NCBI GenBank assembly: GCA_023380635.1
Contig: JAMCRP010000001.1
Location: 173,305-237,304 of the forward strand
Length of the DNA stretch: 64,000 bases
Direction: 5' to 3'
DNA from: Patescibacteria group bacterium
Lineage (GTDB): Bacteria; Patescibacteriota; Microgenomatia; JAMCZE01
A program made the position numbers and the translations under genes. This document shows, piece after piece, positions 13,556-64,000 of this stretch. The notes beneath the pieces were generated by a model. It saw only the letters and a list, made by a program, of their open reading frames with translations. It did no database searches and had not been told where the DNA came from. The number at the start of each line of letters is the position of its first letter. Within the stretch, counting starts at the first letter, position 1.

Positions 13556-14194
13556 TCACCATTTGTTAAACATTGCCAAGGGGGTTTTTAAAACGATCAC
13601 AAAGTCTCTCCAGATAGATTTGTTACGGGCATACGCAGCGTCAAGAGCTACCCGTCGATCCCAAGAAATGGCATTACGACCGCTTGTTTGCCAAGGACCA
13701 GTGAGCCCCGGTTTTACCGAAAGCGCTACATCCAATTCCTTTTTTAAGCCTGGAAAGAATTTTAGTTGCTGAGCAATTTCATCACCAAAAATATCATCAT
13801 TTCGATATGCTCTCGGACCAACCATACTCATGTCGCCCGCAAGAATATTCCAAAGATTAGGTAATTCGTCGAGGCTATATTTTCTAATAAATCTTCCCAC
13901 TCTGGTAATCCTGGGATCCTGGTTCGCCGGGAGTTTCCAACCCTCTTTTTTCTTAAAATTCTTCATGAACTCTCTATCTTTGGCCAGCATCTTGTCAACA
14001 TTGTCAAACATAGATCGGAATTTCCAGATAAAAAATATTTTTCCGTCCTTGCCCACTCGCCTCTGTTTATAAATACATGGACCTGGCGAGTCTAATTTAA
14101 TTGCCAAGGCAATTAGAAGAAGTAAAGGAGAAAACAGGGTAATTACAAACAGTGCCGACAGAATATCCGTGGTTCTTTTAAGAATGTCGTACAT
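13556..14194 (-). CDS. small monotopic phosphoglycosyl transferase (bacterial sugar transferase family, PglC/WbaP C-terminal-like): initiating enzyme
   Basis: Membrane re-entrant helix, then KFRSM...DELPNLWNILAGDMSMVGPRA, the hallmark of PF02397 polyprenyl-phosphate hexose-1-P transferases. Confidence 0.85.
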   Translation of the reverse strand: MYDILKRTTDILSALFVITLFSPLLLLIALAIKLDSPGPCIYKQRRVGKDGKIFFIWKFRSMFDNVDKMLAKDREFMKNFKKKEGWKLPANQDPRITRVGRFIRKYSLDELPNLWNILAGDMSMVGPRAYRNDDIFGDEIAQQLKFFPGLKKELDVALSVKPGLTGPWQTSGRNAISWDRRVALDAAYARNKSIWRDFVIVLKTPLAMFNKW

Positions 14195-15293
14195 ATTCGC
14201 GATATTTTCTTTCGGCAGTTTCCTTAAATTCTTTTTTAAACCTTTCTTTCGAAAACCTCTGTGCGTTAGTATTGCAATCTTCTCTGATTACTCTTACTTC
14301 TCTAATTTCTCGGATTTTCGCGGCCAAGCTCTCCGGTTTCGGCTCGTCAAAAAACCAGCCGGTTTTCCCTTCAACTACCGTTTCCGTCACCCCTCCTTTT
14401 TTATATGCAATTACCGGTTTACCATGGGCCTGGGCCTCCACCGCGACAATGTTAAAATCCTCTTCTCCGGGAATTACGACCGCCCGGCAGTTTTCATAAT
14501 ACCGGTTCAGCTCTTCGTCTGTCAAATAGCCCAAAAACTCTATATTCTTTTTTGCCCTCCCCTTCAATCTGTTTTCTTCTTTCCCTGTCCCGATTATTTT
14601 TAGCGGCAACCCCAGCTGGTTAAACGCGCTAACGGCAATATCCAGCCTTTTTTGCGGCGCCAACCGCGAAACAATTAAATAATATTCCCCGGCGTTTGAG
14701 GCTTGAGATTTGCTTGGGATTTGGGATTTGGGATTTGGGATTTCTACTGGTGGATAGATTACTTCGCTCTCCCGATTGTAGATTCGTTTTATCCTTTCCT
14801 GTACTGCCCGAGAAATAGTCAAGTACTGGTCCGGCCTGGCAGCCACAATCCTGTCGTACCAGCGCAAATACTTCACTAACGGATTACTGACGGCCCGAAA
14901 CCAACCCGGCTTGGCAGAAAAATAATCGTCATGACTATCCCAAAGATAACCGACCGGGTTCAGGCAGTAGCAAAGATGGAAAGTTTCGGGCTTAGTAATG
15001 ATCGCCTTTGCAAATTCATGAGTGACGGAAATTACCAAATCATATTTATCAAAATTGAAGCTTTCAAAGGCTAAACCCATTAAATATGGGTACATTTCGT
15101 GTGCATTTTTAGGAAGCGGTAATTTTTGAAGAAAAGATGTCCTCACATCAAAGCTATCAGCCCATGGCGTCAATCTCTTATCATAGACAGAGGTATAGAG
15201 CGGAGCCTCTGGCCAAATCTCATGCAGGGCCAAAAGTAATCTCTCTGCCCCGCCAAACTTATTTATCCGATCGTAAACTAGAGCTACTTTCAT
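14178..15293 (-). CDS. GT4 glycosyltransferase carrying an internal heptanucleotide repeat
   Basis: N-terminal GGAERLL and C-terminal GT4 motifs. A 7-nt x 4 repeat lies at the inter-domain linker. Confidence 0.8.
   Translation of the reverse strand: MKVALVYDRINKFGGAERLLLALHEIWPEAPLYTSVYDKRLTPWADSFDVRTSFLQKLPLPKNAHEMYPYLMGLAFESFNFDKYDLVISVTHEFAKAIITKPETFHLCYCLNPVGYLWDSHDDYFSAKPGWFRAVSNPLVKYLRWYDRIVAARPDQYLTISRAVQERIKRIYNRESEVIYPPVEIPNPKSQIPSKSQASNAGEYYLIVSRLAPQKRLDIAVSAFNQLGLPLKIIGTGKEENRLKGRAKKNIEFLGYLTDEELNRYYENCRAVVIPGEEDFNIVAVEAQAHGKPVIAYKKGGVTETVVEGKTGWFFDEPKPESLAAKIREIREVRVIREDCNTNAQRFSKERFKKEFKETAERKYREYVRHS
14714..14741. repeat. perfect tandem repeat (TTGGGAT)x4 inside a GT4 CDS (coding strand ATCCCAA x4)
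   Basis: Read directly from the sequence: four perfect 7-nt units, in frame at four copies, encoding IPNPKSQIP. One unit more or less would shift the frame. Confidence 0.9.
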
Positions 15294-16338
15294 AAATTTT
15301 ACGAGTTTCCTTTACGCAGCGTTCCCAACTATATGATTTGGCTCTTTTATATCCACGATCTGTTAGTTCTTTCAATTTTTCCTTATCCTTTAGTGTCTCC
15401 TTTATTACTCTGGCAATATCTTTAGGATCATTTTGATTAAAGTAGACCGCTGCGTCGCCATACACTTCATGAAACACAGGAATATCCGAAACGATTGCCG
15501 GGCAGCCAACACTCATGGCTTCCAATGGAGGGATGCCAAAGCCTTCCATTTTCGAAGAGGTGACAAAAGCTGAGGCGTGGCGATACCAGTCAGCTAGCCG
15601 GCTATTGGGCACTTCACCAATAACTTCGACATATTTTGATTTTGGTAGCCGGGGATAGAAAAATTTATCATTCCCTACCAGAACAAGTTTCATTTTTAAA
15701 ATTTCCGCAGCTTTGATCAAGGTCTCAACATTCTTATGCGGATGGGCATTGCCCACATACAGGAGATAGGGTTTGACCGTTAATGGTTTGCCGGGCTTTG
15801 AAGTGCCTTCCAAAGCTCCTGATTCATAAATCACGGAAATCTTATCGGGATCAGCCTTGTAATGTTTTACTATCTCACTTTTAGCGTCATTGGACAGGGT
15901 AAAAATCCTTTCCGCCCGGAAGACACTAACCCAATTAACCAGATGGTAACCGGTTTTTTTAATGACATACAACCAACCGGGCAGCGTCGACCATTTGCCG
16001 GTTTTATAGTGATCAAATATCAAGTCGTGAATAGTAATGACAAATTTGCCGGGATAAAGAATCGGGAAGGAAAAATAGGGGAAATGTAACAGATCCAATT
16101 TTTCCCGGGAGAATATCCAGGGAAGAAGCAGCTGCTCTCTTAGCGTATGCCAGTGGACATCCGCCAGAACTTTTTTCCATTTCGGGCTGGGCATTTCAAC
16201 CGCCTCGAATTCTTTTTTGGAAAAAAACCAGACATATTCGTTTTCTTTATCGATTTCAGGAAGATATTTAAAAATTGAACGAATGTAGCGACCAACACCA
16301 GTTTCGTTCCACAGCCGGGCGTCAATGCCGATCCTCAT
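15259..16338 (-). CDS. GT4 glycosyltransferase
   Basis: N-terminal MRIGIDARLW...GVGRY and a C-terminal E-x7-E-type GT4 domain (EGFGIPPLEAMSVGCP). Confidence 0.8.
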   Translation of the reverse strand: MRIGIDARLWNETGVGRYIRSIFKYLPEIDKENEYVWFFSKKEFEAVEMPSPKWKKVLADVHWHTLREQLLLPWIFSREKLDLLHFPYFSFPILYPGKFVITIHDLIFDHYKTGKWSTLPGWLYVIKKTGYHLVNWVSVFRAERIFTLSNDAKSEIVKHYKADPDKISVIYESGALEGTSKPGKPLTVKPYLLYVGNAHPHKNVETLIKAAEILKMKLVLVGNDKFFYPRLPKSKYVEVIGEVPNSRLADWYRHASAFVTSSKMEGFGIPPLEAMSVGCPAIVSDIPVFHEVYGDAAVYFNQNDPKDIARVIKETLKDKEKLKELTDRGYKRAKSYSWERCVKETRKIYESSSSLRSDK

Positions 16339-17276
16339 TAGTCCCTCCCCCGCCGTAAATAATTGACCAAACCGATTCCGCCAAGCACCGCGCTGCGAAA
16401 CAGTTCTGGGTACTTTTTGCGATAATGTTTATCGTAAAAAATGCGCATCGCGTCATAACGGGCTTGGTTCCACCTTGCCTGATTGTCAGGATCAACTTTG
16501 GCTACGGATTTTGAAGTAGATTTTAAACCCGAACTGGCTCCCCAATAGTGCATAATTTTAACATCCGGAACAAAATAAACTTTGTAGCCCAGCTCCTTTA
16601 CCCGGTAGCACATCTCGATATCTTCGCCATAGGAAAAATAATCCTCGTCAAACCAACCAATCTTGTCTAATAATTTCTTTCGAATTAGTAAAAATGTCCC
16701 GGACACGGCATCAACCTCATGAACTTTGTCTAAAGGTAAATAGGTAGCCGTATAGCCGGAAAACATTTTGCTTTTGGGAAACAGTTTTGCCAGGCCTGTA
16801 AAATAGGCTAATGAGTTCCAAGGTGTGGGAAACCCCCGGTGAGAAGCATAGTATTGACCACCGTTGGGTAATAGCGTCAGGCAGGTGGAAATGCCGGCAT
16901 CAAGAGTATAGTCCATAAACTGAACCATTCGCTCCAGAGTTCCGGGGTATACTTGCGTGTCGGAATTAAGAAACAGAACATACTCCCCTTTTGCCTTTTC
17001 CCTAGCGCAATTATTACCTCGTGTGAATCCGCAATTTTCTTTGTTTTTTATTAACTCCACTTCCGGAAACTCTTTCTGAACCATTATTACTGAGTTGTCC
17101 GTACTGGCGTTATCGATCACTATCACCTGATAGTCCGGACGCGAGGGTATGGAAGCCAAGCACTGCCGCAACAACGCTTCAGTATTGTAGTTGAGAATAA
17201 TAATTGACAATTTAACTTTTGCCGGCAGTTTCTTCATAGATTTTTTCCAGACTGGTAGAAATTTTTCCCCAGTCAT
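16338..17276 (-). CDS. GT2 glycosyltransferase (GT-A fold)
   Basis: LSIIILNYNTEALLRQCLASI...VIVIDNASTDNS and DxD. Confidence 0.8.
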   Translation of the reverse strand: MTGEKFLPVWKKSMKKLPAKVKLSIIILNYNTEALLRQCLASIPSRPDYQVIVIDNASTDNSVIMVQKEFPEVELIKNKENCGFTRGNNCAREKAKGEYVLFLNSDTQVYPGTLERMVQFMDYTLDAGISTCLTLLPNGGQYYASHRGFPTPWNSLAYFTGLAKLFPKSKMFSGYTATYLPLDKVHEVDAVSGTFLLIRKKLLDKIGWFDEDYFSYGEDIEMCYRVKELGYKVYFVPDVKIMHYWGASSGLKSTSKSVAKVDPDNQARWNQARYDAMRIFYDKHYRKKYPELFRSAVLGGIGLVNYLRRGRD

Positions 17277-18405
17277 AATTATCAGCCACTAACTTTTTAG
17301 CGTTGGTGGACAGACTTTTTGCCAGAGGTTTATTCAGCACTGCTTCTACCGCCAGTTTTGCCAGTTCATTTTTGTTATTACTAATCAGGGCATGCTTCCG
17401 GTCAATCGCCCCAATCCCTTCAATGCCGATTTCCGTGGAGACCACCGGCAAATCTGAGGCCATCGCTTCCAGAATTTTGTATCTGGTCCCCCCGCCGCCA
17501 AAAAGCGGTGCCAGAAGAACTGCTGAGCCCTGATAAGCTGTCCTTATGTCTTCGACATCGTCGGATACGACAATGCTGTCACCAGCCAGATTTTTAATGG
17601 CTTCCGTGGGACTTCGTCCCACAATCCACAAGGTTGCCTCGGGAAGCTTCTTTTTTATTTCGGGCCAGATTTCTCTTACCAGAATTTCCACCGCCTCCCG
17701 GTTCTGTAACCAGTTAAAATTTCCTACAAACAGGAATTTTGTGCCCGTTGATTTACCGTTAAGGATTTTTTTAGTGAAGAAATCCATGTCCACGCCGTTA
17801 GGAACAATACCAACATCCAGTCCCGGCGCCAGTTCTTTCATTTTTTCCTTGTCCGCTTCCGACATGGCCACTACTTTTTTAGCCTTTTGCCAAAAATATT
17901 TTTCCCAATATTTATGTTTAGCGACATCGACATACAACAACGGTTTTACCGGCCAAAGCCGGGAAGTTTGCGTGAAATGTTGGTAGACAAGATATTCAAT
18001 CGTCTGCTCGGCAAGAAGAACCGGAACCGTAGTGGAGGCAATGTTGGGCATAATGTAATAAGTTTCCACATGGATTAGATCATACTTTTCCTTTGCCAGT
18101 TCGGCGGAAATCGCCTCAGTCACCCGGCCGCTACGATACATGTTCACCAAATAGGGATAAGGGGATACCGCGGTTACCAAAAGCTTTTCCGGCGAAGCCC
18201 AGGCTTTTTTCCGGCCAAAGATTTCCACTTTACGGCAATATTTTCGCAATTGGGTTAAATCCGGTTCCGGTTGATCTGTCCGCAAAAAAGAAAACGAAGT
18301 GATTTCATGTTTTCGGGAAAGATTCTTAATTAGATTGAAAGTTCTCGTCTGGCCACCAGAATTTGGTGGATACGGCACGTATGGCGTAAACATCAAAATT
18401 TTCAT
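17212..18405 (-). CDS. GT4 glycosyltransferase
   Basis: MKILMFTPYVPYPPNSGGQTR N-terminus and a GT4 C-terminal domain. Confidence 0.8.
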   Translation of the reverse strand: MKILMFTPYVPYPPNSGGQTRTFNLIKNLSRKHEITSFSFLRTDQPEPDLTQLRKYCRKVEIFGRKKAWASPEKLLVTAVSPYPYLVNMYRSGRVTEAISAELAKEKYDLIHVETYYIMPNIASTTVPVLLAEQTIEYLVYQHFTQTSRLWPVKPLLYVDVAKHKYWEKYFWQKAKKVVAMSEADKEKMKELAPGLDVGIVPNGVDMDFFTKKILNGKSTGTKFLFVGNFNWLQNREAVEILVREIWPEIKKKLPEATLWIVGRSPTEAIKNLAGDSIVVSDDVEDIRTAYQGSAVLLAPLFGGGGTRYKILEAMASDLPVVSTEIGIEGIGAIDRKHALISNNKNELAKLAVEAVLNKPLAKSLSTNAKKLVADNYDWGKISTSLEKIYEETAGKS

Positions 18406-18408
18406 AAC

Positions 18409-21400
18409 TTACTTGGGAAGCTCGCTGTCGGGGACCAGCTGGATAATTACATACTTGTCCGTTTGAGCCAGAAGCTTGTAAGGGTAGAACTTTTTATTGG
18501 TGACGGGTTTGATTTCCCAAACCGGCCACGCGTCAGCCATGATCTTTTTAGTCTGGTCGTCCAAATTAACGCTGACATAATACTGTGCTCCTTCATTTAT
18601 CAATTTATCAAGGCTCCCGTCCATGATCGGCCAACCTTTGCGGTCAGTTTGGTAAAGAAAGGCGGTATCGCCGTCATAGGGCGCAATTACTTTGGCCCGC
18701 CAATCCGTCAGCTCCCGAACTCTCTGCCCGGCTTCGACAATTTCCGGATGATTGATGTTGTAATAGTCTTTGATAAAGTACCAGCCGAAAGCCAGCATGA
18801 ACAAAACAGTAATGACTGCCAGAATTTTGCTCCGGAAATTTTGTGATAGCAGAAAGTCCAGTCCCATGGCAGCCAAAATTACCAGCGAGGGGATAATTAA
18901 AATCTGGTAGTAATCATGCCGGACATTGCCAGTCGCAAAAATAGTTAAATATAAAAGACTGCCGGCAAACAAAACCAGAGGGAAATATTTGTACTTGCCG
19001 GCGGTATTTCTTACCAACCCAAGACCAAGTAAGATCAACCCCCAGTATCCCAAAATTTCCCGTCCGATCCGGTCAGCAAAGATCCAATACCAGAAAGCTC
19101 CTTTAAATCTGATCCCGTCACCGTTAAGCAGCCAGTCGTTGGCCGGTATGCCAGCCGGATACTGCTGCATCCACCAGCGCCAGAGAAGTAATGGCACCAA
19201 TGAAATGATCCCGAAAAGACCTAAAATCGCCCATTGTCGCCAGTTTAAGCCGAATCCCACTAACCAAAAGTAGGCCAAGGGAATCAACAGAAAAGCTGCA
19301 TAAGGTTTAATTAGCAAGGCGACAATCGCCAAAATCAGAGCCAGAACAAGATATCTTTTCCTTTGGGAGAAAACATAGGAACTGGCAAACCACAAGGCCC
19401 CAAGCGAGGCGGCTACCATCGAAGGATCAGGCAAAACGGTCCTGCCGAAATAGATATTGTACGGTAAAACGGCAAATAGACCGGCGGCCAGGTAGGCGAT
19501 CCGCCGGGACAAAAACCGCCGACAGAGCAGAAAAATAAATACTGCTCCAATTGCCGTCGCCAAAGCTGAGGTAAGCCGCCCAGCCGCCTCTACGGTCCAG
19601 TCGGCTAGTATCCGGTCAACAAAAAGTGACGCGGCATTATATATGGGGAACTCCACAAATCTTATACCCAGCGGATTGGGTTTTCCCGAAGCCATGGAAG
19701 AAAGGTCGTCGTATGTCGGATACAGCCAATTAATGGTTTTGTTGCGCAAGAAATCCCGGGTCACGGCCGAAGTATCCGCCTGGCGCCAGGAATGCCAGTC
19801 GGCAATCGGCGAATTAATTTTGTAAGTCCGGATCGACAACGCAACAACTGCGATAACCGCCACCCAGAGAAAATCGGACAACAGAAACTTTTTCACCCGG
19901 GCGAGGAAATTTTTGAAAGAAAATTCAATTCGTAGCGGTTCCATATTCGTCTTAATTTTTTCCCGGGTTAAATAAAGTGACCCAAGAGTCATCCCGGACA
20001 CCCCCCAGAAGACATAAGCAACCTTACTGGATTCGAAAATATCGATCATAGTAGCGTTTACCAAAAGCCCGCCGATCAGGCCGATGAAGCCGGCAACCAG
20101 CGAATATAAGAGCGGATCCCGTATCCCTCCAAGGCTGCGAAATGCGATCCAGGCCATCACTAATAAAGTTCCAAAAAAGGCCGCGAAACCTAAGAATCCG
20201 GTTTCTCCCAAAGCCCGCAGATAGTCATTGTCCGTCGATTCTCCTTCAGTATAGTCATATTTGTTTGCCTGGCTAAGGGTTGCATAGCCTTTTCCCAAAA
20301 GCGGATCCATCTCAAAACCGGCAATCGCCCGGGGCCAGGTCGTATCAAACCTGATACCGGTAGACAAGTCGAACATTAAAGCGTTTTGTGAATAAGTCCT
20401 TTGTGTCGGCACTAAAACCGTAGCTCCACTGGCAGTCTTTTTCGGCATTAAAAGGGGGATTTCGTTTCCGGTGACATCACTGGGCTTCATTGGTGTTGGC
20501 GGCTGGTCAGAAGGAGTCGTTACCGCCGCGATATTATTTTCCAAAAACGTGGCGTTTTGGGTCGGGGCATTGCCGGCAGGCCTTAACAAAATTTCCCGCA
20601 CAGCAGAGAACCTGTCAGCAAACTTAAAAAGAGTCAGAAATCTTGAAGACAGGTCTCCGAACGAGAGCATTAATAAGATACTTAAAAATGCCGCCGCTGC
20701 CCAACGGCTTACCCCCCAACCCAACCCTTTTTTAAAGGTCCAAAGAAAGATAACCACCGACAGCCCCAGCATATATCCAGCAAAGGAAATCCGCGAAGCC
20801 GTAAGAATTAACAGCCAAAAACCTCCGGCCAGAAGCAAGACAATCCCCAATTTTGCCAGCTTATTCTTTAAACCAAAAAGGAAACTCCAGCAAAGCGTCA
20901 GGGCAATCACCAGATACCCGGCCAGGTCGTAGTGCCCGCCGAAAGTCGAAAGAACCCGGGCGTGAGCCGTGAGATATAACCACCAGCCTTTGGCAAATTC
21001 CCGATTCATTGTGGAGAAAGCCGGCCAATACAGATATTTTTGTCCGTAGCCATAGATAATCACGCCCAACAGGGTCAGAAAAAATAGTCCCAGGTATATT
21101 TTCAGCGCCTTCATAGATCTTATTGAAGCAAAGAAAACGAAAAATAAGGAAAAGTACTCGGCCCGGCGCAGCCAGTGCAGGAAGGTTTTTCCGGCAAAAA
21201 GATATTGCAAGGGGACCGTCTGGATAATAAATATTGCCGTGATTACCGAGAGCAATCCGATGACTAAATATCCGATCAGCCCAAGTGAAACGGCGTTAAA
21301 AACAAGTTTGATTTTCCGGCGCAATATCCAGAGCAGAAAAATCACAATGGTCGCCGCCACAAAGAAATCTTCAAGCCTGACTCGAACATTGTAACCGTAC

Positions 21401-21510: not shown

Positions 21511-21515
21511 TTTAT

Positions 21516-23178: not shown

Positions 23179-23197
23179 ATTTCTTTAATTCTACAAC

Positions 23198-27453: not shown

Positions 27454-27474
27454 CTATCTAGATTGTAGCATTCT

Positions 27475-35422: not shown

Positions 35423-35426
35423 TTTA

Positions 35427-39020: not shown

Positions 39021-39029
39021 CAGGTCCTG

Positions 39030-42093: not shown

Positions 42094-42108
42094 TAAAAAA
42101 ATTTAAAT

Positions 42109-45247: not shown

Positions 45248-45280
45248 TTATTATTTAATCCTGACTATACAAATTTACTT

Positions 45281-55294: not shown

Positions 55295-55298
55295 AGGG

Positions 55299-55625: not shown

Positions 55626-56299
55626 CGAAATAATCTTAAGAGCATGCCTTTGCCCACGCTTACAGCCTGCCAAAGCGACGGGTCGTTATGCGAATGGTTC
55701 TGGCTGTATTCAGTATAAATCGGTTTAATGGAAATTTCCTTTAACCTTAAATTATTGCGCCTGATTTCCATAAAAAACTCGTTGCTGACTTCCATTCTAT
55801 CAGTTTTAATGGCTATTTTTTCAATCGCTTGTCGGTTGAAAGCCCTAAGCCCAGAAGTCGTATCGGTTGTCCAGATGTGGTACAGCAGTAAAGTCGCAAG
55901 GTTGCTGGCATAATTGACTGCTGTCCGGGCCAACGGCATACCCCGGGGATTAATCAGCCGGCTGCCGATAACGACATCCGCTTGTTCGTTTTTAATTGGT
56001 AATATCAGCTTTTCCAAATCTTTAGCCTTATGTTGCCCGTCTCCATCGAAAGTAATCAATAATTCGTGGCCCTTGCGCCGGGCATACTCAAACCCGGTTC
56101 CCAGCGCCGCCCCCAGACCTCGGTTGACCACATGCCGCAAAACCGTTGCTTTTTTCTCCGCCGCAACCTTACTGGTCTGATCCGTGGAGCCATCGTCTAC
56201 AACCAGAATATCTCTATAACCATAAGATTGGAGATCACCAATCACTTCGCCAATTTTCTTTTCTTCATTATGAGCCGGAACCACAATTAAAGTTTTCAT
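55622..56299 (-). CDS. GT2 polyprenyl-phosphate sugar synthase (DPM1/GtrB-like)
   Basis: LIVVPAHNEEKKIGEVI...ILVVDDGSTDQT...ITFDGDGQH. A soluble GT2 of the dolichyl-P-mannose synthase type. Confidence 0.75.
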   Translation of the reverse strand: MKTLIVVPAHNEEKKIGEVIGDLQSYGYRDILVVDDGSTDQTSKVAAEKKATVLRHVVNRGLGAALGTGFEYARRKGHELLITFDGDGQHKAKDLEKLILPIKNEQADVVIGSRLINPRGMPLARTAVNYASNLATLLLYHIWTTDTTSGLRAFNRQAIEKIAIKTDRMEVSNEFFMEIRRNNLRLKEISIKPIYTEYSQNHSHNDPSLWQAVSVGKGMLLRLFR

Positions 56300-57336
56300 C
56301 AGCTAACCCAATAGCCACGGGTAAAAAGCGCGGTAAGTATCCCCAATAGTACAACAAAAAAAGACAAAATTGCCAGCTTAAGGCGGGTATTTTTTATTGC
56401 AGCCAGGCCGATATAGATCGGAAAAATTGTTAACAGGTATCGTGGCATGGAAGAAAGCGTCCCCGAAAACGATGGTAATAAAAAGGCCGCCCAGGAGAAA
56501 ATTGCCCAGGAAACGGGTATTTTCCTTCGCGCGGATAACCAAAACAGGACTGCGGCTCCAAAAAGAAAAGCAACGAATTCCAGACCGGCGATCCAATAAT
56601 CATAATGGGCGGGGTTGGCCGTAAAAAATATTTTCAAATAGCGAAACAGGACCTGTAAAGGATTAACGAGGGTTGAAAACGAGTCCGCGCGGCCGTTTTG
56701 GAAAGCACTTTGGGCTGATAGGAAAAACAGCGGTTTCCCAAAGCGAATTCCCAGGTACAATGAATATGCCGCCAATCCCAACCAGGCAAACGGATGGAGA
56801 AAAGATCCGACCAGCCGCGTCGCCCCGGCGGGGATGCTGAAAAATTTTGAATAGGAATAGGTCAGCAAAACCAGGAGGAGAAAAAACGATTCCGTATAGA
56901 TTGCGCCGAAGAAAAATGATGTCGGGAAAGCAAACAAAAAAGCCACCGCCCATTTATTTTTTGTGAGGCTATACAACACTATGGCTGCCAAAAGAATCGA
57001 AAGATTGGAAATGAGCAGACCGGCAACAAGAGGATTTAGAAAATTGGAGAAGAGGTTCATCAGCATCGGGTATAAAGGAAAAAAGACTTGAGTCCCAAAA
57101 CCGTCATAGCCGTTTTTCGCCAGCATAAGGTAATGGACACCATCAAAACTCCCCCACTGCCACAGCCACTGTGGCAGCCCGCTGCCTTTAAGAATGGTAT
57201 CAAAATAAGGAAAGCTGCCTTTAAATGGCAAATACCTTATCCCCAGGTACTCAAAAAACAGCAAACCAAACCGCCAAACTGCAAATATGACAAGAATAAA
57301 GGCATTATCACGCCAGAATTTTTTCATAGACTTCAT
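56299..57336 (-). CDS. GT-C mannosyltransferase-like membrane protein (PIG-V/GT76-like; family unverified)
   Basis: WGSFDGVHYLMLAKNGY...FFPLYP resembles Mannosyl_trans2. Polytopic. Start is uncertain because the longer ORF overlaps the upstream GT4. Confidence 0.45.
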   Translation of the reverse strand: MKSMKKFWRDNAFILVIFAVWRFGLLFFEYLGIRYLPFKGSFPYFDTILKGSGLPQWLWQWGSFDGVHYLMLAKNGYDGFGTQVFFPLYPMLMNLFSNFLNPLVAGLLISNLSILLAAIVLYSLTKNKWAVAFLFAFPTSFFFGAIYTESFFLLLVLLTYSYSKFFSIPAGATRLVGSFLHPFAWLGLAAYSLYLGIRFGKPLFFLSAQSAFQNGRADSFSTLVNPLQVLFRYLKIFFTANPAHYDYWIAGLEFVAFLFGAAVLFWLSARRKIPVSWAIFSWAAFLLPSFSGTLSSMPRYLLTIFPIYIGLAAIKNTRLKLAILSFFVVLLGILTALFTRGYWVS

Positions 57337-58264
57337 AGGTTTGTTTTGCCGTTTTCGTCCAGGAAAACTTGGCCGCCTGAGCCAACTCTTTTCCAGATGG
57401 TTTAACCGCAACTATCTTATCAGCCATATCGTCAACATCTGTTACATCAGTATAGGTAGCCGCGTCGCCGGCAATTTCCGGCAGACTGCCATTTTTACCG
57501 CAAATGACCGGTGTCCCGCAGGCCATCGCTTCCAGAACCGGCAGTCCAAAACCCTCATAGATTGACGGTTGAACATAGACTTTTGCCCGGTTATAAAGTT
57601 TAACCAGCTCTGAAGTTTCCACAAATCCCCTGGCGATGACATTTTTACCGTCAATAAAAGACTGTACTTCTTTCAATGACCGGGCTTCGATATTGTTTCC
57701 CGCCGTCTGGGTAAACTCCTTTCCTACCAGCACGAGAGGAATATTAACCTTCCGGCAGGCCTCTACCAGAGGAACAACATTTTTATTCCAATTGCCACCG
57801 CCAACGTAAAGAACAAAGTTTTCTCTTTTTATTTTTAGCGGTTTAAAGGCTTCATCGGGGGCTAGATAAGTTACTTGTGACTGTAAACCTATTATTTGTT
57901 GAATATCTTTTTTCGAGCAAACAGAATCTGTGAGGATAGCGTCTACTTTACTTAAAAGAAACCGTTGCCAAGGCCAAACGATCTTTGCCCGCAACCCAAA
58001 TGGATAATGCTCAGGAAATTTTAGAGGGGTTACATCATGCAGTGTCACCACCGTTTTAGCAGTAGTAATTGGTGAAAGCGTCGGCCAGGAAAAATCAAAA
58101 TAGGGATAATGGACAATGTCAAATCCTGTAGTGGGTACATACGGTACATCAATCCAACGAACATCAACCAAAGGTTGCAAAGCTTCAAAGAGCCGCTTGG
58201 CATAAAAGCCAACACCCCTCACGGAGTGCCCCACTATCGGAGGTTTTACCATGGCAACTCTCAT
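57308..58264 (-). CDS. GT4 glycosyltransferase
   Basis: EGFGLPVLEAMACGTPVI. Confidence 0.8.
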   Translation of the reverse strand: MRVAMVKPPIVGHSVRGVGFYAKRLFEALQPLVDVRWIDVPYVPTTGFDIVHYPYFDFSWPTLSPITTAKTVVTLHDVTPLKFPEHYPFGLRAKIVWPWQRFLLSKVDAILTDSVCSKKDIQQIIGLQSQVTYLAPDEAFKPLKIKRENFVLYVGGGNWNKNVVPLVEACRKVNIPLVLVGKEFTQTAGNNIEARSLKEVQSFIDGKNVIARGFVETSELVKLYNRAKVYVQPSIYEGFGLPVLEAMACGTPVICGKNGSLPEIAGDAATYTDVTDVDDMADKIVAVKPSGKELAQAAKFSWTKTAKQTYEVYEKILA

Positions 58265-59013
58265 ATCTTTTTTTCTATGCTTTTAAAATATGCTACGGGA
58301 AATAGTAACGCCTGAAACAGGGCCCAAACAAAACCTGGAAAACCGTCAAGAAAACCCAGGTGGCGAAAATACACAATTACAAACCCCTGCAAAGGGTCAA
58401 AGAGGGGCCGCCAGAAAAGATATTGGAACCAGCCGCCGTTAACTTCTTTTGCCATAATGTCTGAATACCGGTTAAAGCGCCGGTCCAGATAGACGCCAAA
58501 AGTCGGGTTATTGTAGTGGAGCAAATCATTTTTCAAGTAGCCTGTTTTTCCTTCAACCACTGCTTGTTCATGAACGCTTTTTGCCGGAAGATTACCCTTA
58601 CCCCGGCGGTATAATCGCATAGTATAGTCTGGGTAAGTTCCGCCTTTTTTTAAAAAACGGCCGAGGAAAAAATTTGCCCGGGGAATCCAGAAACCGTTTT
58701 CTTCCGGGATACTCTCAAGAGTATCTGCAATTTCCTTCTTCAGCGCCGGACTGACGACTTCATCGGCATCCAGTTGCAAAATCCATTCGCCGGTGGCCGC
58801 GTCATTGGCCATTCTTTTGTTAATGTGGAAATTAGGCTTGTTAGTAGTGGATATTACTTTAGCTTTATATTTTTTAGCGATTTCGACTGTTCTATCCAGA
58901 GATTTTCCATCTGCAATTACGATTTCATCAGCGATGTCCTTTACTGAATCCAGACAACGGGGCAAAAATTTTTCCTCATTAAAAGTGGCCAAGGTGACCG
59001 AAAGTTTAGTCAT
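58261..59013 (-). CDS. GT2 glycosyltransferase
   Basis: LSVTLATFNEEKFLPRCLDSV...LQLDADEVV. Confidence 0.75.
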   Translation of the reverse strand: MTKLSVTLATFNEEKFLPRCLDSVKDIADEIVIADGKSLDRTVEIAKKYKAKVISTTNKPNFHINKRMANDAATGEWILQLDADEVVSPALKKEIADTLESIPEENGFWIPRANFFLGRFLKKGGTYPDYTMRLYRRGKGNLPAKSVHEQAVVEGKTGYLKNDLLHYNNPTFGVYLDRRFNRYSDIMAKEVNGGWFQYLFWRPLFDPLQGFVIVYFRHLGFLDGFPGFVWALFQALLFPVAYFKSIEKKI

Positions 59014-59014
59014 A

Positions 59015-59746
59015 CTAGTCAGCGAAGCGGTATTTAAAAATACACCAAAGAGCCTGCGTTCCGTCTTTAAAAGTATTAAATTTTTTTCCCTGGTCGAAGC
59101 TGCGAGGTTTGGTAGTAATTGCTACTTCCCTAATTTTAAAACCACTTTTTAACAGTTTAGCCGTAACTTCCGGTTCCATCTCAAAACCATTCGCCTTTAA
59201 ATTAATCTTTTTTATGGCTTCCCGGGGAATTAATTTATACCCGGTTTCCATATCGGTTAACCAGGTACCGTAGAGAAGACTATTGACTAAACTGAATACC
59301 CTATTGGCAAAATAATGCATCACCAGGACCGTTCGGTGTCTACCGAAAAGCACCGGAGGAGAAGTTAATCGCGAACCATAAACTACTGTCCCGGGAAATT
59401 TTTCCGCTTTAGCCAAAAGCCGCGGAATTTGCTCCGGATCGTACTCTAAATCGGCATCCTGAATAATGGCGTAATCTCCGGTGACTTTAGAAAATCCGGT
59501 TCGCACTGCCGCGCCTTTCCCCTGATTCGCCTCGTGTTCAAAATATTTAACTTCAGGGTGTTTTTTGGCGAACGCTTGGATAATTTTTCCGGAATTGTCT
59601 TTAGAAGCATCATTAACCACAATAATTTCTTTTTTCCACGGCAACTTAACCGCTACCACCTTTTGCAGAATTGATTTTAGCGTTGCTTCTTCGTTGTAGA
59701 CCGGCATCACTATCGATAATCTTGTCATATGCCTTTCCTCCACCAA
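59015..59746 (-). CDS. GT2 polyprenyl-phosphate sugar synthase (DPM1/GtrB-like)
   Basis: LSIVMPVYNEEATL...IIVVNDASKDNS...IIQDADLEYDPEQIP. Confidence 0.8.
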   Translation of the reverse strand: MVEERHMTRLSIVMPVYNEEATLKSILQKVVAVKLPWKKEIIVVNDASKDNSGKIIQAFAKKHPEVKYFEHEANQGKGAAVRTGFSKVTGDYAIIQDADLEYDPEQIPRLLAKAEKFPGTVVYGSRLTSPPVLFGRHRTVLVMHYFANRVFSLVNSLLYGTWLTDMETGYKLIPREAIKKINLKANGFEMEPEVTAKLLKSGFKIREVAITTKPRSFDQGKKFNTFKDGTQALWCIFKYRFAD

Positions 59747-61221
59747 TTCTGGACATCGTCATATACAGCCAACACCGAAAAGGGATACCAGCCATTTTGT
59801 TTGGTAAGTAAATTCCAATTTTCAGAGAGGTCCACAACACTGAATTCCTGCCCTTGAAATTCACCTTTGGCCGACTCAGTGGCATTAGCTAGTCCGCAAT
59901 TTTCGCTGGAGTAAAGGCAAATCCCTACCGGGCGGCCAAAATCGCTTTCGTCACCCGACGCTTCCAAAGCCAAGGAAAAAGAATAGCTCACATTTGAAGT
60001 GGCTAAGCCTTTGCCGTAAACCGCCAGCTTCTCACCGGGAAATTTTTTCTCCAACTGATCTCTCACAATCGCAAGCCTCTGGAAATTATTGTTATAATTC
60101 ATAGTATCTTTTGAAAAATAAAGACCAGAAACGATAAGAGAAAATGAAGCTAGAAGACCCAAGATCTTGTTAATTCGCAAAATTTGATTCAATACCCAGC
60201 CTACCAGAAGAATCAAACCGGCATGAAAATAGATCAGGTATCCGTCCAGCCGCTCGCTGCGAAGATAGCGTAGCCAGATAATTTGGATTCCGATAGCTGC
60301 AAGGAAATACAAAAATGTTAAGGAAACTTTTCTGCGGATGACGGAAACAGATATAACCACAAGGGACGACAAACCGAATAACATTCCGGCAACAAACGGT
60401 CCGCCGGCAATTTTTCCCAAAAACGTCGGCCAGAATGATCCCACATACAATAGCCAGCGGTCGCTAACCCAGAAACGATATTGTCCTACCCGAAAGTAAT
60501 AGATCAATTGTTCAAGATTGCGGAAATTTCGACTGGAATCCCACAAAAGCATGGGCCAAAGAAGAAGAACCAATCCCAACCCACTCGCAACGGCGAATTT
60601 AAACGCGGACTTAATATCTCGAATTTTGACGAAAAACATAATCGGGAAATATACCAACAGGTAAACTCCCTGATAGTGCAAGGATACAGCAGCTCCCGCA
60701 CCCAAGCCGGTCAAAAAGACAAAGCGCATTTTGCCGGATTTTAGATATGCCAGGAAACCAACCAGAGCAACGGCAGCGCAAATTTCCACTAATCCATGTT
60801 GTGTCAGATAGGATGATATGCCAATAACTGCCGGCGACACAGCCGCAATTAAAGCGGCTATTAAGCCTAACCTTTTTCCGCCCAGGATTTTTCCCGCCAA
60901 GGCTAATAGCCAAACAAAACCGAGCGAAATTACAAGCATGAACAACCATGGGGAAAGAAAAACATTAGGCAACAGAATGATTGGGAGCATCAAAAACCAA
61001 TACCAATTTGGTCCAAAAACGAATGGCCCGGCAGAGCTGAAAGAACCCACCCAAGGAAGCTGGTTAAGTTTGATCGCTCCGCGCGCCACTAGTAAATCTC
61101 TGGCGGTATCGCTGCTAAATAGGAAACGCAAATCAAAACCGCGTAACCTGATAACAAAAGCAAGAAGTAGAATTATCGCCAGTATTAACTGGTATCTATC
61201 AATTTTTAACCTTTGCCGCAT
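59725..61221 (-). CDS. GT-C-like polytopic membrane protein
   Basis: About 12 TM, with FSSDTARDL after TM1. Confidence 0.5.
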   Translation of the reverse strand: MRQRLKIDRYQLILAIILLLAFVIRLRGFDLRFLFSSDTARDLLVARGAIKLNQLPWVGSFSSAGPFVFGPNWYWFLMLPIILLPNVFLSPWLFMLVISLGFVWLLALAGKILGGKRLGLIAALIAAVSPAVIGISSYLTQHGLVEICAAVALVGFLAYLKSGKMRFVFLTGLGAGAAVSLHYQGVYLLVYFPIMFFVKIRDIKSAFKFAVASGLGLVLLLWPMLLWDSSRNFRNLEQLIYYFRVGQYRFWVSDRWLLYVGSFWPTFLGKIAGGPFVAGMLFGLSSLVVISVSVIRRKVSLTFLYFLAAIGIQIIWLRYLRSERLDGYLIYFHAGLILLVGWVLNQILRINKILGLLASFSLIVSGLYFSKDTMNYNNNFQRLAIVRDQLEKKFPGEKLAVYGKGLATSNVSYSFSLALEASGDESDFGRPVGICLYSSENCGLANATESAKGEFQGQEFSVVDLSENWNLLTKQNGWYPFSVLAVYDDVQNWWRKGI

Positions 61222-62854
61222 ATCCGCTCCTGAATAACAGTAAGATTATACAGGCAAAGGAGATCAAAGATAAACTGTCTGCCGCTCTATCAAGAGGTGT
61301 TTCTTCAAGCCGAAGCGAATAGGATCCGGGCTTCGGTCCGGATAACAGCATTAAGCCTGTGTCGTCGAATTTCAAGTCCTTCTGGGTCGTAATGACATTC
61401 CAATCTTTCCCTTTGGCCAGATTAAATCCATTATATTTAATTGTTGTTTGCGGAAAATAAAAACGATTGACGCGCAGAATTGCGGATCCGCTCGTGTTAT
61501 CTACTCGCCAATTCAAGCCCGAAGCATTTTCGCTTACTTCGGAAATACTCCCGTCGCCATAGAGAAAATCAAACCGGCTTGGCCGACCGGGCATCCGCAT
61601 GTTTACGCGCCAAACCGGAACATATTCATCACTGGTTGCTGTCGCTGTGCCTATATAACCAGAGAAAGTTTTATCCGAGTAGTTTAGTGGCTGGTTAATC
61701 CTAATGTGATTACGGTTTGCAATAAAAACTATTAGTAACAGCACGATTGCTAATAATTTCTGCCAGCGAAAATTGGCCACCAGATAAGCACCAAAAAACG
61801 CAAAAGAGATGGTTGTTATTCCGAGAAACCTCCAGGGAAAATCAACAATTGTTTTAATAATCGGAAGAATCTGCCAGATGTTACGAATAATCGGTGATTC
61901 TGTCATCAAAAAGACACTGGCGGCTAAAACCAAAAAGAAAAACAAAACCTCTTTTTCAAATTTACGCCGGATCATAATCAGTCCGCCGGTCAATATTGCT
62001 ACCATGATCTGTGTCAAGCCCAACTGAAAAGACATTTCGTCTCTAATTGTTCCCGGAAAATCAAAACCGTAACCCCAGGGACTGCGGATAAGCTGCCAGA
62101 AAGCCACGAAGTGGTCCCGAAAATATGTCATGTTCTGATCGAAATGAATAAATTGACGTTCGAAAAGATCAGGAACATAGATAAAAGCGCTGAGAGCAAA
62201 CGCTAAAGCGGTGGACAAAATAAAACGGCGAAAACTACGATGCAGTAACGCCCAACCCAGAAAGAGCGGCAGGGTCAATGCCGCTACCTCATTCTGGGAT
62301 AATAAGACGGCAGCCAACAATACCGCGGTGACTGTCCACCATTTTTTCTCGATACTCCAAAACACCAGCGGGACAAAACCATATGCCAGGTTCTCGGCCA
62401 AAGCTGCCCGGACATAAACATTGAGAAAATGGTACGGCACCCACATGTAAAAAACAGCGCCTACCAGAGCCCCCGTAGTTTTGAACTTATTTCTTAGCCA
62501 AAGAAAACAACTTAATCCGGAAAGGACGAAGCCCGCAGCCATCACCATGCGAAAGCTATTTTGATAGGAAATTGCCGCCATGTGAAGCAAGGCGCCAAGC
62601 AAATATGGAAGCGGGTAACTATAGACAAAAATCGGAGAGCCAAAATTGGAATTAAAATTAGTTGCCCATCTTGGAGGAAATTGGCCATCACTCAGATCTT
62701 GAAAATAGGCAGCAATCCTGGCAGTATGGGTAAAACCATCATGAGAGGTATAGAAAGGATTAGAGATAAGCGACCAAAGACCAATCACGCTGAAAATCGC
62801 AAGTATTATTAGAGCAAGAAGATTAGCTCTGTTTTTTTTGAAAAATCGGTGCAT
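61199..62854 (-). CDS. GT-C-like polytopic membrane protein (possibly YfhO-like)
   Basis: FYTSHDGFTHTARIAAYFQ...PPRW N-terminal loop, then many TM segments. Start set at MHRFF (62854). Confidence 0.5.
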   Translation of the reverse strand: MHRFFKKNRANLLALIILAIFSVIGLWSLISNPFYTSHDGFTHTARIAAYFQDLSDGQFPPRWATNFNSNFGSPIFVYSYPLPYLLGALLHMAAISYQNSFRMVMAAGFVLSGLSCFLWLRNKFKTTGALVGAVFYMWVPYHFLNVYVRAALAENLAYGFVPLVFWSIEKKWWTVTAVLLAAVLLSQNEVAALTLPLFLGWALLHRSFRRFILSTALAFALSAFIYVPDLFERQFIHFDQNMTYFRDHFVAFWQLIRSPWGYGFDFPGTIRDEMSFQLGLTQIMVAILTGGLIMIRRKFEKEVLFFFLVLAASVFLMTESPIIRNIWQILPIIKTIVDFPWRFLGITTISFAFFGAYLVANFRWQKLLAIVLLLIVFIANRNHIRINQPLNYSDKTFSGYIGTATATSDEYVPVWRVNMRMPGRPSRFDFLYGDGSISEVSENASGLNWRVDNTSGSAILRVNRFYFPQTTIKYNGFNLAKGKDWNVITTQKDLKFDDTGLMLLSGPKPGSYSLRLEETPLDRAADSLSLISFACIILLLFRSGYAAKVKN

Positions 62855-63572
62855 GGTAAATTCCCCACGAATTAAATATAAAGAGCGCGGCTTCCCAACA
62901 GCTTTCCCAGCCAAACTTCATTCCCCGCCAGACATTAATGGTATGTTGCTGATCGTGGTATCTGGTCGGAATCGGAATCTCTCCGATTTGCAAACCGGCG
63001 GCAATGGCTGAAAAAGTGAATTGCTGGTCAAAGGCATAATCATTGGAAAATCTTTGAAACGGAACAGTTTCCAGGGCTTTGCGGCTGTAGGCCCGCAGGC
63101 CACTCATATATTCAGAAAGGTTTTCGCCGGTAATGATGTTGGCAAAAAAGGTATACAAGCGGTTAAAAAAATATTTGTATTTGGGCATTCCACCAGTCAA
63201 TGCCATTCCCCGGTTTTTAATCCGGCTGCCAAACATTATGTCGTAATCTCCGTTAATAATCGGGTCGACCAGCCCCTTGATTTTTGAGCCATCATACTGA
63301 TAATCCGGGTGCAGCATGACGACTACATCGGGACCATCTTTTAAGGCTTCCCAATAGCAAGTCTTCTGGTTACCGCCATAGCCGAGATTATTCGGATGGC
63401 GAAAAACTGTTAATCCCAATTGTTCTGCTACCTCTGCCGTCTTGTCTTTGCTTGCGTCATCAACCAAAATAATTTTATCCACAACCCCGACAGGAATTTC
63501 TTTTATTGTTTTTTCGATTGTTTTCTCGGCAAAAAATGCCGGCAGAACGACAATAATTTTTGATTTTTTCAT
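62823..63572 (-). CDS. GT2 polyprenyl-phosphate sugar synthase (DPM1/GtrB-like)
   Basis: IIVVLPAFFAEKTIEKTI...IILVDDASKDKT...DYDIMFGSR. Confidence 0.75.
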   Translation of the reverse strand: MKKSKIIVVLPAFFAEKTIEKTIKEIPVGVVDKIILVDDASKDKTAEVAEQLGLTVFRHPNNLGYGGNQKTCYWEALKDGPDVVVMLHPDYQYDGSKIKGLVDPIINGDYDIMFGSRIKNRGMALTGGMPKYKYFFNRLYTFFANIITGENLSEYMSGLRAYSRKALETVPFQRFSNDYAFDQQFTFSAIAAGLQIGEIPIPTRYHDQQHTINVWRGMKFGWESCWEAALFIFNSWGIYHAPIFQKKQS

Positions 63573-64000
63573 GGTTCGATTTTATATAATTTCAGGGAGT
63601 CTTTTCCATAGCCATCAAAGTACTGGGCTATCAGGCGTACCTTCCATCCGGCCGGAGCCGCGGGCCGCTGATAAACAATAAAGTAATCCAGGCCAGCGGG
63701 TAAAATTTCCGGTGCCGGCCAATACGGTTTAATCGTTAAATTCGGATGGTCCTTTTGATAAAGTTCCAAAGCATAGGGCATTAGACCAAAGGTTCCTTCC
63801 ACTCCGACAGTAGTGTTCTTACCCGCAAAAAAGCTATTTATTTCGCGAAGCCCCCAGCCGGCTGACCAACTGTTAAGATATTGTGCCGAATCGGTATCGG
63901 CAATTGGCGCCTGGACCGGATCGGTTAAAAGTTTATAGTTGGTATATATGGGTAATATCAAGGCAAGGATTAAAACCACTGGGGCCAGTTTTTTAAATTC
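63569..64000 (-). CDS. hypothetical protein with N-terminal hydrophobic anchor; 5' end probably beyond the window
   Basis: The frame stays open to the window edge (EFKKLAPVVLILALILPIY...). Pro/Trp/Tyr-rich and possibly exported. No domain recognised. Confidence 0.4.
   Translation of the reverse strand, partial: EFKKLAPVVLILALILPIYTNYKLLTDPVQAPIADTDSAQYLNSWSAGWGLREINSFFAGKNTTVGVEGTFGLMPYALELYQKDHPNLTIKPYWPAPEILPAGLDYFIVYQRPAAPAGWKVRLIAQYFDGYGKDSLKLYKIEP

Follow-up and report, generated by a model that had tools for sequence, protein, structure and literature searches.

A gene cluster of at least 55.6 kb predicted to assemble a cell-envelope glycoconjugate on polyprenyl phosphates in a Microgenomates bacterium

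The stretch of DNA analysed here, referred to as the window, covers 64,000 nucleotides of a Patescibacteria group bacterium (positions 173,305 to 237,304 of contig JAMCRP010000001.1, assembly GCA_023380635.1), and most of it is occupied by a single cluster of glycan-assembly genes. Forty-nine such genes (g14 to g62) follow one another from position 11631 to the window end, 47 of them on the minus strand; the exceptions are two short-chain dehydrogenase/reductase (SDR) genes on the plus strand, g27 and g44. Overlapping or abutting genes were present at 37 of the 48 junctions and the largest gap was 33 bp, which bears out an initial annotation of this DNA that had described all but two genes as co-oriented with minimal or overlapping junctions. 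Open reading frames (ORFs) of the minus strand tile nearly the whole window and cover the glycan region completely, thus there is no room for hidden genes. The range of 13556 to 63979 assigned at first was too narrow at both ends: the cluster starts at 11631 with a DUF4012 gene (g14) and continues past position 64000. A Logan contig, 100 % identical to window positions 46299-64000, runs on beyond the window end, where it completes g62 (472-483 aa, PMT/PMT_2) and adds a further pair of PMT/PMT_2 genes; hence at least three genes for PMT-type GT-C glycosyltransferases (GTs), g62 included, reach or lie past this end. The cluster has a size of at least 55.6 kb (about 56 kb), with no fewer than 14 genes of the GT-C type and about 22 for GT-A/B enzymes. 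At least 5 %, about one-twentieth, of a genome of ~1 Mb is given to this single co-oriented cluster.

The inventory was based on a Pfam scan of every main-strand ORF with curated cut-offs. It agreed with the proposed composition in one PglC-type initiating transferase, seven GT2 genes (about seven expected; g18, g26, g30, g54, g57, g58 and g61), two Wzx flippases (g31 and g43, Polysacc_synt), four methyltransferases (g29, g34, g42 and the FkbM-type g46) and one acetyltransferase (g21); the GT4 genes, expected to be at least 14, numbered 15 (g16, g17, g19, g22, g24, g28, g36, g37, g41, g45, g47, g49, g51, g52 and g56). Domains of Wzz/Wzc, Wza or an ABC exporter were found in no window ORF, as had been stated. 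The Wzy_C domain of g20, the DUF4012 protein, five sugar-nucleotide genes and the extension past the window had not been recorded. The longest-ORF starts of g23, g46, g48, g50, g53, g55, g58 and g60 exceed the starts called on independent contigs by 6-59 codons and give apparent overlaps of 44-113 bp; the coordinates below are the shorter ones wherever an independent call exists, and apply to the minus strand unless indicated.

The cluster opens with the membrane-anchored DUF4012 protein g14 (11631..13541), the first gene of a conserved core, and with the initiator g15 (13556..14194), a small phosphoglycosyl transferase (PGT) of the PglC/WbaP type (Bac_transf 203 bits, TIGR03025 248 bits). The GT4 genes g16 (14178..15293), g17 (15259..16338) and g19 (17212..18405), assigned by Pfam like most transferases of the cluster, enclose the GT2 g18 (16338..17276; Pfam, NCBIfam). 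They precede g20 (18409..21510), a 1033-aa fusion of a WaaL/Wzy_C-like N-terminal half with an ArnT-like GT-C (PMT_2) C-terminal half. Further along lie the hexapeptide O-acetyltransferase g21 of the WcaF family (21516..22112), the GT4 g22 (22105..23178), the polytopic g23 (23198..24298), the GT4 g24 (24282..25322), the GT-C g25 (PMT_2; 25319..26596), the GT2 g26 (26593..27453), the GalE/TviC-like SDR sugar-nucleotide epimerase g27 (27475..28395, plus strand), the GT4 g28 (28355..29386), the S-adenosylmethionine (SAM) methyltransferase g29 (29383..30090), the GT2 g30 (30087..30869) and g31 (30838..32052), the Wzx/MOP flippase of the core. Two GT-C genes, g32 (PMT_2; 32033..33343) and g33 (33309..34718), the SAM methyltransferase g34 (34715..35422) and the DUF2142-type GT-C g35 (35427..36776), the distal end of the class-wide core described below, are followed by the GT4 g36 (36757..37884).

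The base composition changes from g37 to g48 (~37900-51000), with 35-41 % GC against ~44-47 % elsewhere in the window. The low-GC cassette (~37-48 kb) has its own Wzx and its own sugar-nucleotide pathway. It starts with the GT4 g37 (37881..39020) and includes a non-hydrolysing UDP-GlcNAc 2-epimerase (g38, 39030..40130; WecB equivalog, 258 bits against a cut-off of 210), a PseB/FnlA-like UDP-GlcNAc 4,6-dehydratase (g39, 40127..41191) and an RmlD-like reductase (g40, 41188..42093); these three together suggest a pathway to a 6-deoxy-N-acetylhexosamine (6-deoxy-HexNAc). The cassette goes on with the GT4 g41 (42109..43335), the SAM methyltransferase g42 (43332..43997), the second Wzx/MOP flippase g43 (43994..45247), the SDR 4,6-dehydratase/epimerase g44 (45281..46288, plus strand), the GT4 g45 (46176..47408) and the FkbM-family methyltransferase g46 (47402..48013).

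A distal conserved module begins with the GT4 g47 (48171..49289). Its GT-C genes in the window are g48 (PMT plus PMT_2; 49246..50913), g50 (PMT_2; 51983..53164), g55 (56299..57264) of a PIG-V (GT76)-like family, g59 (59725..61221), g60 (61199..62854), a membrane protein of the GT-C clan (PF10131, PTPS_related, 46 bits) with colinear homologs in relatives, and g62 (63569..64000), the C-terminal part of a PMT/PMT_2 protein with its start past the window, recognised from gene calls on the independent contig and by BLAST. Interspersed are the GT4 genes g49 (50913..51986), g51 (53196..54164), g52 (54161..55294) and g56 (57308..58252), the GT2 genes g54 (55622..56299), g57 (58261..59013; Pfam, NCBIfam), g58 (59015..59728) and g61 (62823..63572), and g53 (55299..55625; 85.5 bits), a small DUF2304 membrane protein predicted to be a GacJ/Rv3632-like activator. 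Two of the GT4 proteins are atypical. The match of g51 covers just the last half of the Glycos_transf_1 model, its C-terminal domain, and g56 has a shortened N-terminal domain; both may be degenerate or specialised.

The central protein of the core is g20. Its N-terminal half matched Wzy_C (PF04932, the O-antigen-ligase family) with 49 bits at a cut-off of 31.7, and is the sole Wzy_C domain among the window ORFs; the C-terminal half matched PMT_2 with 49.8 bits. In fold comparisons, performed on g20 alone with an AlphaFold model (AF2, pLDDT 76.9), the best Foldseek match was ArnT (5f15/5ezm, E 6e-7, TM-score 0.60). STT3, PglB, AglB, ALG9/12, DPY19 and Pmt4 were matched as well, and Emb and Aft structures ranked well under ArnT and STT3. 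A separate match was obtained to the O-antigen ligase WaaL (7tpg_B, E 1.1e-3, TM-score 0.58). In Gottesmanbacteria-like genomes the two halves form a single ORF. Nine loci (L026, L031, L036, L044, L057, L062, L063, L076, L079) from Woese-, Curtiss-, Pace-, Beckwith- and Chisholmbacteria encode them in two adjacent, often overlapping ORFs of ~530 aa (Wzy_C) and ~480 aa (PMT_2). The difference is a gene fusion or fission event, and since the halves are adjacent or fused across lineages, they present a Rosetta-stone link between both activities.

Residues important in WaaL of Escherichia coli and conserved in PglL are R215, R288 and H338 (PMC3643930). The histidine corresponding to H338 is essential in PglS (His324; PMC12800693) and is H349 in PglL, within the motif H-[NSQ]-x9-G-x-x-G. 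R240 of g20 aligns to R215 of WaaL (hhalign) and R387, in the motif S-x-G-I-R, fits the S-L-G-A-R288 context; the overall hhalign score of WaaL and g20 is weak, so that the arginine match has to be read as motif-level evidence. Both arginines were invariant in 19 sequences from across the class, fused and split. The WaaL motif H338-N-x9-G-x-x-G reads D427-N-x9-G438-x-x-G441 in g20 (signature ESTD427, residues 403-441, ~20188-20304 on the minus strand), with Asp427 invariant in all of these 19 sequences. Judged from the alignments, the N-terminal domain keeps the residues for binding an undecaprenyl diphosphate (Und-PP)-linked donor and carries a lineage-wide exchange of histidine for aspartate at the presumed catalytic base.

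Besides the flippases the window encodes 11 polytopic proteins, the number initially described as GT-C-like. For ten of them family-level evidence was obtained, while the evidence for g23 was weak. Scores above the Pfam cut-offs for families of the GT-C clan were reached by six proteins: the C-terminal half of g20, g25, g32, g48, g50 (PMT_2/PMT) and g60 (PF10131). The match of g48 to PF02366 (39 bits at a cut-off of 22.7) is shared by the genes past the window end, and DE motifs are present. Sub-threshold PMT_2 matches were found for g33 and g59, and the scan of the single sequences was empty for g23, g35 and g55. The g35 family has 1493 representatives in a library of 1.84 billion proteins; of 35 aligned members 25 matched DUF2142, 11 PMT_2 and 6 PMT, and P-D-E-x-x-H right behind the first transmembrane segment (TM1) is invariant. 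Homologs of g55 matched PF04188 (PIG-V mannosyltransferase) in many cases and PMT_2, GT87 or ALG10 in some. Both g35 and g55 were assigned to GT-C because their homologs match GT-C families. For g23, a probable GT-C by sequence, the motif FFQDD after TM1 is invariant, hhalign gave a probability of 53 % to a DUF2142-like family and 21 % to another GT-C family, and Pfam assigned nine members of the family to none. The g23 family is located within the core in close relatives, within the distal module in two relatives (L082, 11113-12570; L083, 5095-6549) and, in many other Microgenomates, upstream of g35 in divergent transcription.

The acidic motif that a GT-C assignment leads one to expect in the loop behind TM1 was present in ten of the 11 proteins and was not located in g50, with the topology taken from a crude Kyte-Doolittle scan that showed 6-18 hydrophobic segments per protein. 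The motifs were ADWHSWRQAD, FFQDD, WLDE (g25), FTDE (g32), TMDE (g33), TPDE, NSDE (g48), SFDG (g55), SSDT and SHDG, and their acidic residues are invariant in the family alignments. NCBIfam models yielded just weak hints to Agl23, mannosyltransferase and STT3, e.g., 46 bits for g25 with a mannosyltransferase model that has a cut-off of 900. The MIR domain typical of eukaryote-type PMTs was not found; of the likeness to eukaryote-type protein O-mannosylation that had been seen in the locus, the logic is what remains. Family evidence and motifs together identify the polytopic proteins as predicted enzymes of the GT-C type, and not as transporters or unrelated families. The GT-C paralogs of the cluster share 23-31 % identity over ~100-200 residues, a level that rules out a recent tandem duplication.

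The GT2 enzymes had been suspected to provide polyprenyl-phosphate sugars. Such a role is supported for three small proteins without transmembrane segments, g54, g58 and g61, which among the NCBIfam models come closest to synthases of polyprenyl- or dolichyl-phosphate sugars, all with scores under the equivalog cut-offs. The matches of g54 were PpgS over the full length (148 bits with a cut-off of 370) and AglJ (115 bits), so that it resembles a polyprenyl-phosphate-HexNAc synthase of the PpgS/GacI type. The matches of g58 were AglJ, ArnC and PgfS, those of g61 AglJ, PpgS and a dolichyl-phosphate hexose transferase. The other four (g18, g26, g30 and g57) look like ordinary cytoplasmic GT2 enzymes. 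Relatives keep the contiguous trio g53, g54 and g55 in colinear order. Its characterised likenesses are GacI/GacJ/GacL and PpgS/Rv3632/Rv3779; GacJ is a DUF2304 protein that lowers the Km of GacI for undecaprenyl phosphate (Und-P), and the flippase of the Gac system, GacK, is a Wzx-type protein. By analogy to GacK, either g31 or g43 could flip monosaccharide-phosphate lipids rather than a repeat unit.

For a view on conservation, the family alignment of g20 was scanned against one genome per species. More than 575 hits resulted; 79 loci were taken and their ORFs compared by BLASTP with the window proteins. The conserved order is glycyl-tRNA synthetase - RecO - DUF4012 - PGT - GT4 - GT4 - GT2 - GT4 - [WaaL-like + GT-C] - acetyltransferase - GT4 - GT4 - GT-C - GT2 - GT4 - GT2 - Wzx, in Gottesman-, Woese-, Curtiss-, Roizman-, Pace-, Beckwith- and Chisholmbacteria. 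The genes g19, g18, g16, g15 and g14 were found in this order in 41 of the 49 loci with enough flanking sequence; g21 and g22 were kept in 44 of 44 loci, g24 and g25 in 43 of 44. Among 40 metagenome loci of the g35 family a g33-like GT-C was present just downstream in 33 and a g31-like Wzx in 27, and many of these loci run on through g30-g28-g26-g25-g24. Upstream of g35, most lineages have a divergently transcribed g23-like GT-C, a g58-like GT2 and epimerases. The conservation of g35-g33-g31 together with the divergent genes upstream of g35 therefore delimits a class-wide core from 11.6 to 36.8 kb (~25 kb), colinear in dozens of Microgenomates genomes.

The GT-C-rich distal module (48 to beyond 67 kb) was colinear, from g62/g60 through g51/g47, in two relatives with identities of 29-80 %. 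It is situated there 38 kb and 52 kb upstream of the g20 homolog on the same strand, and the g20 proteins of these relatives share 56 % and 64 % identity with that of the window. In both of them the GC content dips on entering the middle region, and one has genes for a Wzm/Wzt ABC transporter and a GT47 instead in the middle stretch. A cassette that varies between strains and can be swapped, as serotype loci can, would give this pattern.

The host is a Gottesmanbacteria-like, monoderm bacterium of the Microgenomates in the candidate phyla radiation (CPR), in line with the first impression of a CPR-like genome: g20 and g14 are 100 % identical to proteins deposited at NCBI as 'Patescibacteria group bacterium', and the close relatives are Gottesmanbacteria/Microgenomates. 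A chimeric assembly was ruled out. Logan contains two contigs with 100 % identity to the window, over 12.0 kb and 17.7 kb, but these may stem from the reads behind the window itself; more weight lies on the gene order, which is kept in genomes from other samples. Many contigs of third-party metagenome-assembled genomes with a clearly Microgenomates-type locus carry the titles 'uncultured Gammaproteobacteria' or 'Pseudomonadales', and one match each fell into a Limisphaerales bin (L040) and an Omnitrophota bin (L064). Such names are probably placeholders or the result of contaminated bins.

The locus is best understood as a factory in three modules that works on polyprenyl phosphates and makes a glycoconjugate of the cell envelope, a reading to which we assign a probability of roughly 0.6. 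The best-supported description of its logic is a hybrid of a Wzx-plus-ligase route and a GT-C decoration route. The initial contrast to classical O-antigen or capsule loci was overstated in this respect, as PGT, Wzx and a WaaL/Wzy_C-type domain are present. From the gene content we infer the following sequence of steps. In the first module, g15 would prime Und-P, and about nine cytoplasmic GT4 and GT2 enzymes with the O-acetyltransferase and methyltransferases would build an Und-PP-linked oligosaccharide, to be flipped by the Wzx g31. At the outer face the WaaL-like N-terminal domain of g20 would move the oligosaccharide en bloc to an acceptor, or polymerise it. The GT-C part fused to g20, together with g25, g32, g33, g35 and probably g23, would add sugars from polyprenyl-phosphate donors, with the DUF4012 protein g14 as a putative extracytoplasmic accessory protein. 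The second module, with its own Wzx, a UDP-6-deoxy-HexNAc pathway, GT4 enzymes and methyltransferases, may supply a strain-specific part of the glycan. In the third module, the three PpgS/GacI/AglJ-like GT2 enzymes would make polyprenyl-phosphate sugars, one of them aided by g53, and at least eight GT-C enzymes would use these sugars on the outer side of the membrane for elongation or decoration of the glycan, so that all three modules would contribute to a single product.

As acceptor, a membrane glycolipid in the manner of TacL, giving a lipoglycan, is the preferred candidate by analogy, at somewhat less than even odds. It is favoured because TacL, the known WaaL-like ligase of monoderm bacteria, acts on a glycolipid by ligating teichoic acid to it (PMC5727136), and because the cluster is without an LCP gene. 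A protein acceptor is a less probable option, and a polymerase role of the Wzy_C domain comes behind it.

A cluster of this size could also be a neighbourhood and not one pathway. Two or three independent glycan loci would lie side by side: a conserved essential core polymer, a strain-variable O-antigen- or capsule-like polysaccharide with its own Wzx, and unrelated GT-C decorators. The presence of two Wzx genes, the sugar-nucleotide genes brought along by the low-GC cassette, its replacement by a Wzm/Wzt set in one relative and the end of the core at g35 in most Microgenomates, with divergent genes upstream, are all in agreement with such a neighbourhood. However, a single initiating PGT serves at least 56 kb, nearly all junctions overlap on one strand in an operon-like packing, and the order of the modules is kept in two relatives with g20 identities of 56-64 %. 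The distal module is without a backbone initiator of its own, thus it needs an acceptor made elsewhere. On balance we regard separate loci as rather improbable.

General protein O-glycosylation is a live, though less probable, alternative. The Wzy_C domain of g20 would act as a PglL/PilO/WsaB-like O-oligosaccharyltransferase on S-layer proteins or type IV pilins, and the PMT-type GT-C enzymes would glycosylate proteins directly. In Pseudomonas, pilins receive glycans through a Wzy_C enzyme (TfpO) as well as through a GT-C (TfpW). Wzy_C is common to WaaL and the O-oligosaccharyltransferases, NCBI names g20 a GT39 and several genes match PMT/PMT_2; type IV pili, moreover, are of great importance to CPR bacteria, whose envelopes are Gram-positive-like (PMC6744442). 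Yet the PglL-specific motif PF15864 was not detected in g20 at E <= 0.01, the catalytic histidine conserved in PglL and PglS is an aspartate, no MIR domain was found in the cluster and neither the locus nor its flanks encode a candidate acceptor protein. That the Wzy_C half is instead a Wzy-type repeat-unit polymerase, with DUF4012 as a chain-length or export co-factor and the core as a classical monoderm Wzx/Wzy pathway with GT-C side-chain decoration, is likewise a live but less probable alternative: PF04932 includes polymerases, the catalytic histidine of WaaL is missing, the DUF4012 protein of Bifidobacterium longum is encoded between a priming GT and wzz and the class-wide core holds no other Wzy candidate, but WaaL is the best structural match of the N-terminal half, both WaaL arginines are kept and a repeat unit made by about nine core glycosyltransferases would be unusually large.

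Several observations weigh against a three-module factory with one envelope product. Two Wzx genes and an exchangeable cassette in the middle would fit two or more separate products just as well. Among the window ORFs neither a GtrA-family flippase nor an LCP ligase, a glycolipid synthase or a candidate glycoprotein was found, and just three polyprenyl-phosphate sugar synthases would have to serve at least 14 GT-C enzymes. By its sequence g20 carries Asp in place of the catalytic His of WaaL and PglL, so ligase chemistry is not assured. Searches of the PDB gave no match, neither by single-sequence phmmer against the PDB sequences (g20, g48, g35) nor with the profiles of the g35 and g20 family alignments. 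The connection of g23 to GT-C is weak, and the predicted model of the DUF4012 protein g14 had no assignable fold relative and no PCP-like (polysaccharide co-polymerase) match.

Known systems resemble parts of the cluster. The three-component transmembrane glycosylation systems GacI/GacJ/GacK/GacL of Streptococcus pyogenes, PpgS/Rv3632/Rv3779 of Mycobacterium tuberculosis and CsbB/GtcA/YfhO of Firmicutes correspond in the predicted GT2 polyprenyl-phosphate sugar synthases, the DUF2304 helper and GT-C enzymes with an acidic loop, and the two Wzx genes are candidates for the part of GacK. They have one to few GT-C enzymes per genome, which decorate a polymer made elsewhere, whereas at least 14 are assembled here in one cluster, several of them inside a conserved backbone operon, and a GtrA-type flippase is lacking. 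With the O-antigen/WaaL route and the pneumococcal teichoic acid pathway (TacF flippase, TarP polymerase, TacL ligase; PMC5727136) the cluster shares the PGT, cytoplasmic GT4 and GT2 enzymes acting on Und-PP, Wzx and an outer-face enzyme of the Wzy_C/WaaL fold with both arginines. It differs in the invariant Asp for His, in the fusion or translational coupling of the WaaL-like protein to a GT-C, in the absence of Wzz, Wza and LCP, and in a core that is conserved in the class and not hypervariable. Of the classical Wzx/Wzy locus, PGT (g15) and Wzx (g31, g43) are shared; a dedicated Wzy, a co-polymerase (Wzz/Wzc) and an outer membrane polysaccharide export protein (Wza) were found in no ORF.

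The assembly of lipomannan/lipoarabinomannan and arabinogalactan in mycobacteria (Ppm1, PimE, Mpt, Emb, Aft) follows a similar logic, with cytoplasmic GT-B and GT-A enzymes and then many extracytoplasmic GT-C enzymes fed by polyprenyl-phosphate sugars. The proposed relation to this system holds for the logic, but not for the genes: orthologs of PimA/B, Ppm1, PimE, MptA-C or EmbC/Aft were not detected, as NCBIfam searches with the polytopic proteins and the GT2 enzymes gave weak generic matches. The mycobacterial genes are dispersed, and initiation takes place on phosphatidylinositol or decaprenyl-phosphate-GlcNAc without a PglC-type PGT. The exo-/capsular polysaccharide locus of B. longum 105-A (cpsD - DUF4012 - wzz - GTs; PMC5412050) has the priming PGT next to DUF4012 at the cluster head as well; it possesses Wzz and is without the WaaL-GT-C pair and the GT-C battery. 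The O-oligosaccharyltransferases PglL, PilO and PglS and the S-layer glycosylation of Gram-positive bacteria (WsaB) also employ a Wzy_C enzyme on Und-PP glycans of an O-antigen-like pathway, with the PglL-specific motif, the catalytic His and an adjacent acceptor gene as the features absent here.

The first 11616 positions of the window, directly adjoining the glycan cluster, contain a division and cell wall (dcw)-type block and then housekeeping genes: MurB, MurC, MurD, MurI, a NUDIX protein, a Mur ligase, FtsI, MraW, glycyl-tRNA synthetase and RecO (1-11.6 kb). The NUDIX gene (4083-4574), with just 37 % GC, is placed among the mur genes. In the Mur ligase of 354 aa (4558-5622) the matches are confined to the middle and C-terminal Mur ligase domains.

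Literature searches on glycosyltransferases, GT-C, mannosyltransferases and O-antigen in CPR, Patescibacteria, Gottesmanbacteria or Microgenomates retrieved no description of the locus, as the initial annotation had anticipated, and for DUF4012 nothing but one family-level remark was found. The component families and each half of the logic are already known. New are the scale, with one operon-like cluster uniting at least 14 GT-C enzymes and about 22 of the GT-A/B type, the embedding of GT-C enzymes in a conserved backbone operon and not as add-on decorators, the class-wide 25-kb core beside the dcw genes, and the WaaL-like protein coupled or fused to a GT-C with an invariant His-to-Asp exchange.

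With genomes of ~1 Mb from which many biosynthetic pathways are missing, CPR bacteria are presumed to spend their lives attached to other cells; to our knowledge, next to nothing is known about their surface chemistry. The devotion of at least 5 % of the genome to one cluster and a class-wide core next to dcw point to a major, probably essential envelope glycoconjugate. More speculatively, and with the odds against it, the core may make a hitherto unrecognised glycoconjugate that is the signature of the envelope in the class Microgenomatia. As a lipoglycan or wall glycan it would replace teichoic acids or LPS (lipopolysaccharide), and it would be made by a new type of enzyme, a His-to-Asp WaaL variant in an obligate unit with a GT-C; strain-variable extensions may set the host or phage specificity of these episymbionts. 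The WaaL-like/GT-C pair, the DUF4012 protein and the GacIJL-like unit are candidate targets for heterologous biochemistry. The core presents a marker operon for the class Microgenomates and is a candidate for determining attachment to the host and recognition by phages. A WaaL variant of this kind, with Asp for His and coupled to a GT-C, would, if active, widen the known repertoire of Und-PP-glycan transferases.

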